Of a stretch of DNA of 24,203 nucleotides, positions 439 to 22,329 are shown piece by piece. Source of the stretch: Trichonephila inaurata (taxonomy: Eukaryota). Location: assembly GCA_019973955.1 (NCBI GenBank), contig BMAV01009759.1, positions 49,952-74,154 on the forward strand. The letters run 5' to 3'. A program made the position numbers and the translations under genes. The notes below the pieces were generated by a model. It was not told the DNA's origin. It searched no databases and saw only the letters and a program-made list of their open reading frames with translations. The stretch's first letter is position 1; each line of letters starts with the position of its first letter.

Positions 439-490
439 ATGGCTAGTTCAGCAAAAAAGAAGAAAAGAAAGAAAGAAAAAAAAAAGACCC
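439..490 (+). CDS. Candidate first coding exon of the TEP1-like gene: ATG, then a Lys/Arg-rich peptide MASSAKKKKRKKEKKKT, ending in phase 1
   Basis: ATG at 439-441 in the context aacATGG. The open frame runs to a perfect donor, ACCC|GTAAGT, at 491. The 1-nt overhang c pairs with the 2-nt start of the exon at 3099 (c+at gives His). The peptide is low-complexity, basic and NLS-like, and shows no homology signal. The call rests only on splice and phase compatibility. Confidence 0.3.
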
Positions 491-1489
491 GTAAGTTCAA
501 GGTAGTAAGTGTAACAGAAAATTTCAAACTTGGTGGACCGAGAAACATGGCATGTGATTAAGTAAAGACGACAAAGAGGTGTGTGTTTTATGTTCTGGAA
601 CAATTGTATGTAAAACATAGTGTGTAAAAAGTTTCCAGAATTCATTTAACTGTTTGAAAAAGCTGGCTCACGCTATTTTAATCATATTTTCATCTACCTA
701 TGCTTTTGAATCATTATTTTCGGAAATGAATAACATTAAATATTCGCTTAGAAACCGTTTGGCAGAGGGCTCCAATTCAGTATGCATTCTGCTAAAAGTA
801 ACACCTTACAATCCTAATATAAGTTATTTGTCATCTAATCTGCGACACAGAAGTCATAGTACTTTAATTTGAATTACACGTATAACTAAAACATTTAATA
901 CTATATAGTACAAAATGTATTTTTTCATTGTAAATAGACTTTTGAGTTGTTTGTATTTAGTTTTATTATTTTCCAAAAAAATCACAAATCAAAACTACTT
1001 GACGGCACGTTTATACCTCATTAAACATTTTTTAAACAAAAATGGCACGTTGATCCATAAAGGTTCGCCACTCCTGGCATATACAGTTATACCCTGAACT
1101 CATGTGATAAGTAGACTGAGTGAGAAGACCGTAGTCGAATTCGCTCAAATCGGGGTATGATTTCGCATATAAATTATTTTTATTTAGGACCGGAGACGAA
1201 AAATAGTAATAATTTAGAAAAAATAAATGTTTAATATAAGCTTAGATAACACAAATACACACACAAAATTTCAGATTTTGATGCAGAAATGTTTCATAAA
1301 ATCTAACAAAGTAGTCTGCCGCCTCAAAGATTTCTTTCTCCCGCAAAATTTCCTTGTATCATGCTAATAATTTTTTAAATTTCTTGTTTTGAAAAAACAC
1401 GCTCATCGTTGAAGTCTATATTTTCTAAAATTTGTAACTCTTTTTTGAATTAAACTGAGGCCTTCTGTCAAATTCACAACCTTTATTCG

Positions 1490-1680
1490 ATATTCTGATT
1501 GATTTGGGTCTAAAGTTCTTCAATGTCTTCTTGCTCATGCATTTCTATGAGACCATCAATTGTCAGTTCCTGATTGTGTGAATCCAGCAGTTCTTGAACG
1601 TCATAACTATCCGCTTCTATATTTATTTTTCTGGAAAGATCGACAACTTCTTCAATCATAAACAATTTCACCATTTTTTT
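1490..1680 (-). mobile_element. pogo/Tigger-like transposase C-terminal fragment
   Basis: Minus-strand small ORF MVKLFMIEEVVDLSRKINIEADSYDVQELLDSHNQELTIDGLIEMHEQEDIEELRPKS... The ELLxSHxxELTxxELIEMxEQ acidic tail is characteristic of Tigger1/TIGD C-termini. No DDE core lies upstream. Confidence 0.45.
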
Positions 1681-1917
1681 TTCTTAAACAAAGGACGAAT
1701 CTAAGAGATTTGAAAATCATGGAACTCTGAGTTCGCGTATGTCGGGGTAGCGTAAGTCTCTCTAGGTATTACAGTACACTTTGTCATTATACAGTATGTC
1801 CACTTAAGTCTCTTCCCACCGCCTTAACTTCGGAATGGTTTTCTGCTATATTCATAAAATGATGTCTAGGTATAGTAAAGTAGCCATGCACTACTGAATA
1901 AAACAATATACAGCGCC

Positions 1918-18517: not shown

Positions 18518-19689
18518 GTATGTCATGATATTTTTTTAAGACTCTTATTTGTTATTTCACTTTATAAGAACTATATTTGCTTTAAAATGCTTTTGAACAA
18601 GATACCAAAGTTATATTTAAATATTATCTTATATTTAAACTAAATAACTTTTTTAACTACATTATTAATTCTCATGTTTTCAATGTTGTTAATTTAAATA
18701 TTTACATCATATGAAATGTTTTGAAATATATTATTTAAAATTTAATTCTTAAATATCTGTAACTTCAAATGGCTGTCAAAATTTTTTTGAAAGTATTTTT
18801 GATGAAAATTTACTTGAAAAAATGTATGCATTAGGCAATTTTAGCTGCATCAATGGGTTATTAATCACTTTATATAGTATATAATTCTCTTTATATTGAT
18901 TATACAAATTTGTTTTATATCTGTCTATATCAAAATAAGATTTTTTTAAAGGAATTGGGGTTGTGTGTTTTTATTTTGCCCTTGTGTATTTTTAATGTCA
19001 GGAAATTGTTATTTTTATGGAATTTTTAGTGAGCTATGGAAGAAGCATATATCTTCTTTTAAGTTCAACTTATATTTGTCTACAGCAATTTTTATAATGT
19101 TGAGTGATTGGTTTTAAAATATCTGAAAGTCATCCTGTATTATATATTGAAATGGAAAATGTGATGTGTACTCTATTTAATAGACATAATGAATTCATTA
19201 TCTCTTCTCCAGCAAGTTTAAGCATATTGACTTCTGTACCCTTTGTGTGGGTGCTTGGCATAGTTGTTTTCAGTCTCATTTTCATAAAATGCAATTATAA
19301 GGAAAATAAAAGTAAAAATTTGATAATGTATGAAAAAATGGAAGTATTGTATCATTTGAATTACATGTTGCAATATTTGCAATGTTTATAACAAACTGAT
19401 ACTACCAGATATTTTTTAGGCTGACTTTATTATCTGTAAAAGTTCTTAGCTAAAAAAATTTTGGTAAGACAAGTTTACCAAATAATCGACAAATCTAACA
19501 AAATAATCGACGCTCCAAGAAGGAGTTGCCCGATTGTAATGAAATTTCGTATGCAAAGACATTTAGATAGAGCAAATGATTCAAATTTGGTGTCCAATGA
19601 ACGAATAACGGGAGCTCCAGCACATGGGAACTGCGTTTTGATCAGGTCTATATAACGAGCGATTCTCAATCTGATGGTCAAAATTTCTG

Positions 19690-20706
19690 TTGCATTTCGA
19701 CTGTGATACCCTGCGTTGGTTGTATCAATGCCTTGCTGAAGAATTCGTGCACATTACGAGCAGATGTCAGAATTTGGAAGAGATCGTTCAATCAGATTGA
19801 AAGTGGCTGTTTGAACGAATCAAAAAATAGTTCTACACGTGTGTCGGAAGCGATGTAGTGATTAGACGATGTTAGCTAGAGTGGGTCAACCATGGCAGAT
19901 ATCAGCGTCAGAACGGCTGCGGTCGACCAAGAGCACAATAGAGCGGGAAGAACGAGCGATTGTAAAGCAGCTGTCATAGCAGCATATTCGTCGTTATCAA
20001 CTATCCACGGTGTGACCAGAACACATGTGTCCAACATGACCCTCCACAGACACTTACGATCGCGCTTTCGCTCTCAAGCCTGTACACCGTTAAGTACAAT
20101 TGCAGTTGTGCCGGGCTCGTTTATCGTGGAATTGTGCAGACTTGGGACGTATAGTCTTTAGTCATGAGTCCCATTTCCGACTGTGCCCTGACGAAAACCA
20201 CAGACGTGTTTCGAGACGTCCAAGACAGCGTGGGAATCCTGCCCTGACTATCGCACACCACACAGGTTCTCAACATTGCATTGAGGTTTTGGGTGCCATC
20301 CCTTTTGATAGTCGTAGCCCCTTGGTGGTCATTTATGGTACACTGACAACACAGCGGTATGTTGACGGCATCCTACGGCCTGTTGTGTTATCGCTCCTTT
20401 TGTGGCACCCAGAACTTATTTTTCAGCACGATAATGCCCGACCGCACCCGACACGTGTTGCTATGAATTGTCTTCAAGCTTGCCCTTAACTTCCTTGGCT
20501 AGCTAGGTTGCTTGATCTCTCTCTCATAGAGCACGTTTGGGACGTTATGGGAAGGCACAGCCATACGGAAATGTTGACGATTTAGCCCAATAGTTGGAGA
20601 CCATTAGGCTCGAAATTCTGCAGAACACCATCGGTGAACTTTATTAGTCTATGCCACACCGGGTGGCAACTTACATTCAGGTGAAAGGTGAACCAATGCC
20701 TTATAG
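19690..20706 (+). pseudogene. Tc1/mariner-superfamily (Tc1-like) transposase pseudogene, carrying frameshifts and stops, inside the intron between the exons at 18517 and 22237
   Basis: Across three frames: ..GRPR.. ; VSNMTLHRHLRSRFRSQ (GL.SRRP) ; HESHFRLCPDENHRRVSRRPRQR ; VIYGTLTTQRYVDGILRPVV ; IFQHDNARPHPTRV (the FQQDNAPxH DDE region) ; LPWLARLLDLSLIEHVWDVMGR (WPARSPDLSPIEHVWD). The element boundaries are unclear. At about 19440-19500 the left flank has the direct repeats caaataatcgacaaatc / caaaataatcgacgctc. Confidence 0.75.
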
Positions 20707-22236
20707 ACTTCCTCTCTTTGTATTGGTCAAACTCTGAAATAATCATTCAATTGTTTGGAAATTTTAATAGTTTTTCTATGTATGTTCTCATCCACCAATT
20801 TTTATCGCAGTCAAGCTACTCCTTCTTGATGAGTCCATTTTTTCATTATTGACTATCAATAGGTGATGGTATTAATTTCTTAATATTAATAGTAAAATAA
20901 ATTAAATTAATTTTTAATTTTAATACAGTGCTATACATGTTGTAAAAGTTTAACTTTTTTTCTTGAAACTTTCTCCATGGTAACATTGTTTGAAATAAAA
21001 AGAAAAAAAAATTACTTATTAATTTGAAGTTGTAATAGATTATCTAATTATTATCTTTTTGTTTCCTAAAATAAAATGGAAAAAAAAACTGACCAAAATC
21101 TAAATTTTTTAGTAGCATATTCTTTTCATAATAAAGTAATGTACTCTTCTTGCCATGTTTAAAAGAAATTCGATTCTTAACTTTACAAAAATCATATAAA
21201 AATTACAGTCCTCTAAAGTAACTACACTTTAAACTTTATTAATCTCATGTTTTTGTTGCAAAATTTTATGCAATTCTAAAAATTTAATTTAATTCAGTTT
21301 TAAAAGTTCGTTTTTCCCTTTGTTGTCTAACTTTCACCATATACATCCTCTCCAGATGGAATTACTAAGCTATGAGATAAAATTTTTTGCAGATTTGTTT
21401 TGGGTCTCATTGATCTTCAGTTTGAAAACATAATTGTCTGCATGAAAAGTTAATTGTTGCTTAATGGTTATTCATTATCAGTATTTAATGAGTGTAAATT
21501 AATTCAGAAGGGGTTCTTTTTTGTTGTATTTTGTACACTATTTTGGAAAGTAGATAGACATAATTGGCTTAGAGTGAAAGCTTTGGCTACCCATCCTCAC
21601 TTCTTTGAAAATTTTACTTTTTGATTAAAAAACATAATTTAATACGCGATAAACTTAAATTGTACATTTTTAGTTGTTTTTCTGGTATTTTTTGTGACGA
21701 ATTGAGGATTTGAATCCTGTGCCACTAAAGATTTGCCACATAGGGGACTGTTGCATGCTAAATTTGTTGAGACTGTAAGTTTTCACATTTGACAAGGCTT
21801 GGAAGTTTAAAGAAGGGAATACCTGCTCCAGTTAAGTGTCGTGGAGTGCGTTACTAATAGTCCTCGTGTAGCCTCGAAATAAGCTTTACGTTAATAAACA
21901 ATAAATCGTGTTCGAAACTCTTTTGAGTTTTGCAGGAATATTGCTAAAGTGTAGCTTTCTATTGAAATACTAATAAACAGATTAACTGAAATATAGTCAC
22001 AAGATATTTATTAATTCTTTCTATATATTTTAAGTTCTTTTTTTTCTGAAAACTTCATGTAATTGCTCTATTTTTTTAGAAATATGTGAATAAATCTTAT
22101 ATTAACTGAGCAACTATTCAATTTAATATTTTTATGCACTTTTTTTAGAATATTTACTGCCCTTTGAATTATGTTTCTTATTTCATAAAATTATTTTATT
22201 TATGCTTTTGATTTATATTGTTTCCATTTCTTTTAG

Positions 22237-22329
22237 TCATCTGTTACAAATGGATCATCAAATTCTGTAAATGCCCTAAAAAAAGTTTTGGAATACTATT
22301 TGAAACAATATGTTATATTAACAGAAAAG
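22237..22329 (+). CDS. TEP1: TEP1-like vWA-region exon: SSVTNGSSNSVNALKKVLEYYLKQYVILTEK. The gene continues beyond the window.
   Basis: Acceptor tttccatttcttttag| at 22221-22236 and donor AAG|GTCAGTAT at 22330. The exon is phase 0-0. It loosely matches human ..DENDGWSLNTFGKYLLSLAGQRVPVDRVILLG. A second frame is also open, so confidence is lower. Confidence 0.6.

Follow-up and report, generated by a model that had tools for sequence, protein, structure and literature searches.

A related described system is vertebrate TEP1 (telomerase-associated protein 1), an RNA-binding vault component with TROVE, vWA, DUF4062 (TIR-like), NACHT and WD40 parts in that order (PMC7916137; bioRxiv 10.64898/2026.05.01.722283). 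Vertebrate TEP1 binds vault RNA through its TROVE domain, and binding suffers when the neighbouring vWA domain is removed; the NACHT and WD40 parts are believed to have a regulatory role in binding and to make contact with the MVP shell (PMC7916137). According to a 2026 preprint, the TEP1 DUF4062 domain is an NADase of the TIR-like type and works inside vaults (bioRxiv 10.64898/2026.05.01.722283). MVP orthologues have been reported in arachnids other than Acari, and were lost in winged insects (PMC11219742). The Ro60/Rsr (TROVE2) proteins share with TEP1 a TROVE domain followed by a vWA domain, and both are small-RNA-binding protein families. In contrast to TEP1, Ro60/Rsr proteins have only about 500-540 amino acids (aa) and lack DUF4062, NACHT and WD40 parts. 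Here we describe a stretch of 24,203 nt of contig BMAV01009759.1 from the orb-weaving spider Trichonephila inaurata madagascariensis, called the window in the following, with all coordinates given as window positions. Positions 3099-22329 of the window most probably represent an internal stretch of the single-copy TEP1 gene of this species, a reading to which we give a probability of about 0.93.

The window is AT-rich, with a GC content of approximately 0.25-0.30 and short islands of higher GC, and stop-free stretches on its plus strand hold clear TROVE-domain peptides. Exon boundaries were set by reading the sequence around each of these fragments and then assembling the spliced frame. Thirteen internal TEP1 exons of 63-163 nt each were found on the plus strand (Table 1), all of them with a T-rich tract and an AG acceptor, and with a donor of the type GTAAG, GTGAG, GTATG or GTCAG. 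The phases of the first twelve exons chain into 506 codons without a stop, and addition of the thirteenth exon extends the frame to 537 codons, also without a stop. The spliced product of 537 aa is 100% identical to residues 234-770 of the GenBank protein GFY54193.1, "telomerase protein component 1" of T. inaurata madagascariensis. It spans a poorly conserved pre-TROVE linker, the complete TROVE domain and the first ~100 residues of a vWA-like domain. The GC content is 0.34 in the exons and 0.26-0.27 in the introns, which are AT-rich and littered with transposon debris. When the product is aligned with the Argiope, Oedothorax and Tachypleus proteins and with a transcript product of 2,612 aa, ten out of the twelve exon junctions show no gap; the remaining two, both in the N-terminal linker, fall in a poorly conserved stretch rich in insertions and deletions.

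A previous sequence-only reading of this DNA had proposed a model of 13-14 GC-richer exons with AG/GT boundaries and consistent phases. The boundaries, the phases and the difference in GC content were confirmed, as were thirteen of the exons at the proposed places, including both 63-nt (21-aa) exons and the end at exactly 22329. The fourteenth, at 439-490, did not hold and is discussed below. The exon chain is already annotated in GenBank, and the TEP1 gene is an ordinary, conserved gene and not a new one.

Table 1. Features of the TEP1 locus of T. inaurata madagascariensis (window positions, unless a position is given on locus L001, the orthologous locus of Trichonephila clavipes, or on locus L002)
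Feature	Position	Strand	Length	Sequence	Remarks
Coding exon	3099..3161	+	63 nt	ends LDYPGGERNVPPDSINPNTA	first TEP1 exon in window; pre-TROVE linker; phase 1 in, phase 1 out; AG acceptor, GTGAG donor; starts at GFY54193.1 residue 234; 96.8% identical to T. clavipes; weak similarity to Caerostris 'DMDYPIIERGI'
Coding exon	3288..3350	+	63 nt	VPVSSLSFQHPVRFGAAFIPQ	AG/GTAAGT, phase-consistent; within GFY54193.1; 95.2% identical to T. clavipes
Coding exon	6148..6296	+	149 nt	TIAKDISEMPVYNFDSDEGYEQ…RRIKSKK	immediately 5' of TROVE; 99.3% identical to T. clavipes; matched by Nephila pilipes, Caerostris and Oedothorax proteins (tblastn)
Coding exon	7003..7137	+	135 nt	MQFLNVV…DPEFILK	TROVE start; junction without gaps against Argiope, Oedothorax and Tachypleus
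Coding exon	9562..9723	+	162 nt	VALFSRQELNIR…VADFYE	TROVE; hidden Markov model (HMM) E 9e-22 from the fragment alone
Coding exon	11331..11427	+	97 nt	TFADSRL…FDEYQL	TROVE
Coding exon	11635..11743	+	109 nt	AKYNREKK…CLLGKK	TROVE; 0 amino-acid changes against T. clavipes
Coding exon	13258..13415	+	158 nt	YPETAEVF…RMKLPTPETWETQ…WEKLI	TROVE core; HMM E 3e-22
Coding exon	15100..15209	+	110 nt	DNGKLPYMAMLRNLKNL…QLENK	TROVE; 5/5 substitutions against T. clavipes at third codon positions
Coding exon	15796..15950	+	155 nt	IAVIKSRQSPLQFYEAF…KLNEK	TROVE; 100% identical to GFY54193.1
Coding exon	17244..17406	+	163 nt	IKNVSLPL…NLQPIPGKSLVICDILFPSSLDGKKRDK	TROVE end and first vWA-like strand, with degenerate MIDAS position
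Coding exon	18362..18517	+	156 nt	IFNLSIMMGLMCLKACEDCKMNVI…CLDYE	vWA-like; 100% identical to GFY54193.1, 53% to Oedothorax TEP1
Coding exon	22237..22329	+	93 nt	SSVTNGSSNSVNALKKVLEYYLKQYVILTEK	last TEP1 exon in window; vWA-like; phase 0 in and out; TTTTAG acceptor, GTCAGT donor
Rejected Lys-rich 'exon 1'	439..490	+		MASSAKKKKRKKEKKKT, then GTAAGT	A-rich intronic stretch, by chance open and in phase
Decayed Tc1/mariner-type transposon	19496..20848	+	~1.35 kb		in the intron between exons 18362-18517 and 22237-22329; not TEP1
LRR_8-rich gene	L001 37566-40068; L002 1-3592	-	~1,255-1,289 aa		opposite strand to TEP1

The Pfam family TROVE (PF05731, cut-off 23 bits) was matched at E 7.7e-82 by a rough concatenation of the fragments, at E 4.1e-86 by the exon model and at E 1.4e-85 by GFY54193.1. 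The best protein match of the rough concatenation was 'telomerase protein component 1 [Trichonephila clavipes]' with 91% identity, followed by TEP1 entries of Caerostris, amphioxus, shark and fish; proteins labelled as Ro60 appeared only from E 1e-34 downwards. In blastp comparisons with the window product, the TEP1 of Argiope bruennichi (XP_055930768.1) reached 677 bits with 58.5% identity, and that of Oedothorax gibbosus (KAG8194867.1) 592 bits with 59.7% identity. The 2,612-aa transcript product (412 bits, 42.6% identity) and the TEP1-like proteins of the horseshoe crab Tachypleus (403 bits, 42.5%) and the sea urchin Lytechinus (360 bits, 42.1%) followed. Vertebrate TEP1 fragments match the window product at 1e-66 to 1e-79, with a sequence identity of ~35-45%. 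Linker, TROVE and vWA-like parts stand in the same order in the full-length TEP1 of Argiope and Oedothorax (58-60% identity over the window product), and the Argiope protein differs by an insertion of 22 aa where the second window exon joins the third. These matches support the assignment of the locus, as far as sequence comparison goes, to TEP1 and not to Ro60. The sequence-only reading, which had named a TEP1 ortholog with a TROVE domain and the start of a vWA-like domain, is thereby supported.

In the searches of protein collections, matches stayed below ~1.75 times the size of the query, so that full-length TEP1 was invisible to a 386-aa query. This size bias could wrongly suggest that only short TROVE proteins exist. 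An exhaustive profile search of 1.84 billion representatives found many relatives of 2,200-2,900 aa.

The vWA-like part of the window product (~100 residues) can be aligned in register to the vWA region of homologous TEP1 proteins (HMM positions 431-535), and the vWA-like exons are 53-60% identical to Oedothorax TEP1. At the position of the metal ion-dependent adhesion site (MIDAS) the window product is degenerate and reads ICDILFPSS instead of DxSGS. The same degenerate 'ICD(I/V)L.P' is present in the TEP1 of Argiope and Oedothorax. A spider-specific loss of the MIDAS was considered and rejected, as most metazoan TEP1 proteins also lack DxSGS.

The remainder of the gene was sought downstream with an HMM of TROVE and vWA homologs and with tblastn, using the full-length TEP1 of Tachypleus and Oedothorax and the 2,612-aa transcript product. 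No further TEP1 exon except 22237-22329 was found in the window between 18.5 and 24.2 kb or in the next 6.5 kb of T. clavipes. Residues 770-1820 of Oedothorax TEP1 were then used as query for the C-terminal part. Separate models named 'telomerase protein component 1', of 1,746-1,825 aa, were found in T. inaurata (GFY54195.1), N. pilipes and Argiope, and their cluster also includes models of Trichonephila clavata (1,825 aa) and T. clavipes (1,157 aa). Each of these C-part models lies on a contig equal in size to that of the N-part model of the same species. GFY54195.1 (1,746 aa) is encoded on a contig of 1,493,685 bp, the same size as the contig of GFY54193.1, and holds DUF4062 (E 4e-14), WD40 and the TEP1-specific propellers PF25047 (91 bits) and PF25048 (70 bits). 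The downstream NACHT/WD40 part expected from the sequence-only reading was thus located in a separate model; a NACHT Pfam match is recorded solely for the Argiope ortholog.

In N. pilipes the order of the genes is N-part on the plus strand, LRR gene on the minus strand and C-part on the plus strand, with models that span 104 kb for the N-half alone and 82 kb for the C-half. In T. clavipes a minus-strand gene with LRR repeats is located ~5.4 kb after the ortholog of the last window exon. The LRR gene appears to be a conserved gene nested in a long TEP1 intron. In phase, the exon ending at 22329 (phase 0) agrees with the first real C-part exon of N. pilipes (LDHVIFLGG…), which starts in phase 0 behind an AG. 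In Argiope (XP_055930768.1, 2,599 aa) and Oedothorax (KAG8194867.1, 2,587 aa) a single protein covers both parts, with the sequence …TEK|LDHVI… across this point. When T. inaurata residues 1-770 are joined to the T. clavata C-part, the resulting composite of 2,586 aa can be aligned with Argiope over its entire length, at 61.7% identity. GFY54193.1 and GFY54195.1 were deposited as two genes, whereas the evidence presented here favours one gene of ~2,586 aa, the latter model holding the DUF4062, WD40 and TEP1-propeller remainder. The split is very probably an annotation artefact, because full-length single models exist in Argiope and Oedothorax; one TEP1 gene with a very long intron and an antisense LRR gene inside it would have been divided by the annotation pipelines.

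The alternative is a gene fission in araneid spiders, with a free-standing short TROVE protein of ~780 aa and the NACHT/WD40 half as a separate gene. This would agree with the annotations of T. inaurata, T. clavata, T. clavipes, N. pilipes and, in its first annotation, Argiope, which are all split at the same intron, with Caerostris, where only N-part models were found, and with the opposite-strand LRR gene between the halves. Furthermore, complete short TROVE and vWA proteins of ~650 aa exist in protists, for instance the MMETSP transcript P0005 (649 aa), a complete open reading frame marked as 'complete', and these align along the whole window product. The protist proteins have retained a canonical DVSGSM MIDAS and stop behind the vWA domain, whereas the spider gene runs on into NACHT and WD40. 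The split point is inside the vWA fold, with matching phases on either side of the gap. Four non-homologous ends occur among the N-part models (a read-through VSIYFIEYVQ*, PVARGR, an unrelated tail of 41 aa and a transposase), and four different invented starts among the C-part models, one of them a 9-nt ATGACGCAG mini-exon in N. pilipes. In view of these ends and starts, and of the single proteins of ~2,590 aa in Oedothorax and in the RefSeq annotation of Argiope, we regard a fission as quite unlikely. A related idea retains a single gene: the antisense LRR gene in the giant intron may cause frequent premature termination, so that nephilids might additionally make a stable isoform of ~780 aa with TROVE and half a vWA domain, ending …TEK-VSIYFIEYVQ* like the deposited model. 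This isoform would serve as an RNA chaperone of the Ro60 kind that works without the NACHT/WD40/NADase half. The idea is speculative and unlikely.

The last exon of the window, 22237-22329, has a frame that is open in T. clavipes as well. It is matched by the N-terminal model of N. pilipes (tblastn, E 1.5e-6), and Oedothorax full-length TEP1 matches NSVNALKKVLEYYLKQYVILTEK at 60% identity (tblastn, E 0.002). In the RefSeq protein of Argiope the homologous stretch directly continues as LDHVI…. The exon was accepted because these other spider proteins contain matching sequence. Conservation in T. clavipes was dropped as a test of this exon, since it does not discriminate. GFY54193.1 reads through the GTCAGT donor of this exon into the intron at 22330-22362 (…TEK-VSIYFIEYVQ*) and does not splice to a next TEP1 exon.

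Several points weigh against a single TEP1 gene with the structure described here. Pfam vWA families gave no match at E<=1 on the window product, in which only the first ~100 vWA residues are present. The last exon on its own raises the score against a family HMM of non-spider homologs by only ~2 bits, and its conservation in T. clavipes is not above the intron background, as 21% of non-exon windows of 93 nt are equally conserved. Homology, conservation and splice signals are the basis of every exon junction. For T. inaurata, the long intron, the LRR gene nested in it and the splice from 22329 to the following exon are predicted from the arrangement in N. pilipes and T. clavipes.

The Lys-rich 'exon 1' at 439-490 had been counted, with the two 21-aa exons, as part of the protein N-terminus by the sequence-only reading. 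It could be a genuine lineage-specific alternative first exon of TEP1: it starts with an ATG, its frame is open up to a perfect GTAAGT donor at 491, its phase fits exon 3099, and a Lys-rich patch does occur elsewhere in spider TEP1 N-termini. Nevertheless, the segment 348-2027, which holds 439-490, has no counterpart at the T. clavipes locus, where merely an unrelated stretch of ~73 bp is present. The sequence was found in no annotated nephilid TEP1 protein, GFY54193.1 included. In GFY54193.1 the residues before LDYPGG (exon 3099) are …RKQSAQYQLYRD, that is …QSAQYQLYRD, and in T. clavipes the corresponding exon is found at L001 6240-6491, ~2.9 kb before the equivalent of window position 1; the orthologous Lys-rich patches are located in exons before this …QYQLYR exon. 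An ATG followed by at least 30 open nt and a phase-1 GTRAG donor occurs 0.26 times per kb in the introns of this gene, so that the 3.1 kb in front of exon 3099 should contain ~0.8 such candidates by chance, and it contains one. In addition, an A-rich run translates as poly-Lys anyway. The candidate was rejected for its absence from T. clavipes and from the annotated proteins and for this chance-level count, and a role as alternative first exon is very improbable.

Because the residues before exon 3099 come from an upstream exon and 439-490 is unsupported, the 5' exons of TEP1, coding for 233 aa of the N-terminus, lie upstream of the window. The N-terminus had also been described as lacking a counterpart of the human repeats. 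This part of the claim stands, given that Pfam TEP1_N (PF05386) gave no match at E<=1 on the exon model and none at E<=0.001 on GFY54193.1 or Argiope XP_055930768.1; the element at 439, which had been counted as the first of this N-terminus, is spurious, and the real 233 aa are upstream. The TEP1_N repeats of ~30 residues are a feature of vertebrates, and membership in the TEP1 family does not need them. A comparison of the Caerostris N-terminus with the window gave only low-complexity poly-Lys matches (E>2). Spider TEP1 N-termini (P0203, P0077, P0315 and P0002) possess two copies of a short motif L-T-S/C-T-K-N-K-F/Y-L, and also a Lys-rich patch far upstream of TROVE, outside the window. In the TEP1-like protein of amphioxus, repeated 'NPLL' motifs are present at the same place as the spider motifs. 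These spider and amphioxus motifs may correspond, in invertebrates, to the N-terminal repeats of vertebrates.

The T. clavipes locus is colinear with the window at ~91% DNA identity. In aligned columns the mismatch is 2.9% in the first twelve exons and 6.7% in the rest of the window (Fisher p ~2e-10, with an approximated count table). Substitutions in the first twelve exons number 11, 9 and 24 at codon positions 1, 2 and 3. Over all thirteen exons the Nei-Gojobori method gave a synonymous divergence (dS) of 0.073 and a non-synonymous divergence (dN) of 0.019, thus a dN/dS of 0.26, with dS close to the intron divergence of 0.067. Judged from this comparison, the TEP1 exons are under purifying selection. 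A decaying TEP1 pseudogene, kept merely as sequence similarity, might be suspected from the transposon debris in the introns, from the downstream exons lying outside the window and from the messy published models of the locus. The 537 codons are free of stops in T. inaurata as well as in T. clavipes, no splice site is damaged, and the coding sequence is also intact in T. clavata and N. pilipes; together with the low dN/dS and the concentration of substitutions at third positions, this makes a pseudogene highly implausible.

That the locus is a Ro60 (TROVE2) ortholog can practically be dismissed: the TROVE module is common to both and some lower-ranked matches are labelled '60 kDa SS-A/Ro ribonucleoprotein', but Ro60/Rsr-like proteins, much more distant relatives, reached only 100-157 bits (28-38% identity over part of the domain) against 360-677 bits for TEP1, and the gene would continue into DUF4062, NACHT-type and WD40 domains, with orthologs of ~2,590 aa. 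The prediction that TEP1 should far outscore Ro60 therefore proved correct. Xenopus Ro60 (1YVP) gave 18.9 bits (E 0.005) against the family profile and was not found at E<=1 with the single window sequence as query, and PF25045 (vWA_Ro60) had no match on the window exon model.

Remains of transposons surround the exons. The Tc1/mariner-type element in the last intron of the window has a G+C content of 0.43-0.50 and imperfect terminal inverted repeats of 55 nt, and its broken transposase-like frame at 20094-20582 (…HDNARPH…) resembles Pfam DDE_3 at E 0.04, below the cut-off. The T. clavipes model GFU38289.1 takes the ortholog of this element as terminal coding exon, and is a chimera because the transposon ortholog is annotated as its last coding exon. 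A minus-strand fragment at ~2200-2460 (…SPRLHDL…DFFLWGYLK…), which has no Pfam match, is presumably the C-terminus of a mariner-like transposase. The first exon of GFU38289.1 (MFMDGVHTPAVSGVPTEK) is an antisense reading of this fragment (window 2291-2344, plus strand) and also spurious. Therefore, both the first and the last exon of GFU38289.1 are transposon-derived.

Two segments of TEP1 introns are present only in the window, 348-2027 (1.7 kb) and 23078-23524 (0.45 kb), and two others only in T. clavipes, L001 13812-15066 (1.25 kb) and L001 23488-24343 (0.86 kb). These differences between both Trichonephila species are probably transposon insertions or deletions. Segment 348-2027 holds a Tigger/pogo-like acidic peptide on the minus strand at 1510-1674, without Pfam match. 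A short G+C-rich dispersed repeat containing GGGGGG/CCCCC was found at window 12885-13031 and at L001 47-188 (79% identity between the loci), and also at window 1-110. This repeat is probably an element similar to short interspersed nuclear elements, and ARAGORN detected no part in it that resembles a transfer RNA. Scans of the window for transfer RNAs and internal repeats found nothing, and no Rfam family, vault RNA included, was found in the window.

The window exons would encode residues 234-770 of a TEP1 of ~2,586 aa, that is, its RNA-binding half. Judging from related species and from the models on a contig of the same size, downstream exons on the same contig would supply the rest of the vWA-like domain, a DUF4062/TIR-like domain, a NACHT-type NTPase and WD40 propellers, following a very long intron with the opposite-strand LRR gene. 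By analogy with vertebrates, TROVE and vWA would bind a small non-coding RNA (vault RNA, or telomerase RNA in vitro) and tether it in the MVP vault shell, and the C-terminal DUF4062-NACHT-WD40 part would form a regulated NADase/NTPase module. The RNA binding, vault association and NADase activity of the spider TEP1 are all inferred from the literature on vertebrate TEP1. The spider gene fits published knowledge, because MVP has been reported in arachnids other than Acari; the statement of the sequence-only reading that this genome retains vault components agrees with that report (PMC11219742) and is not a new inference.

TEP1 was already annotated by name in T. inaurata and four related spiders, with a full-length RefSeq model for Argiope. 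For curation, a merger of GFY54193.1 and GFY54195.1 into a single TEP1 of ~2,586 aa is probably warranted, as is a merger of the corresponding models in T. clavata, T. clavipes and N. pilipes. Spiders could be an arthropod system in which to study vaults and TEP1, as winged insects lost MVP, a point to which the window itself adds nothing new.

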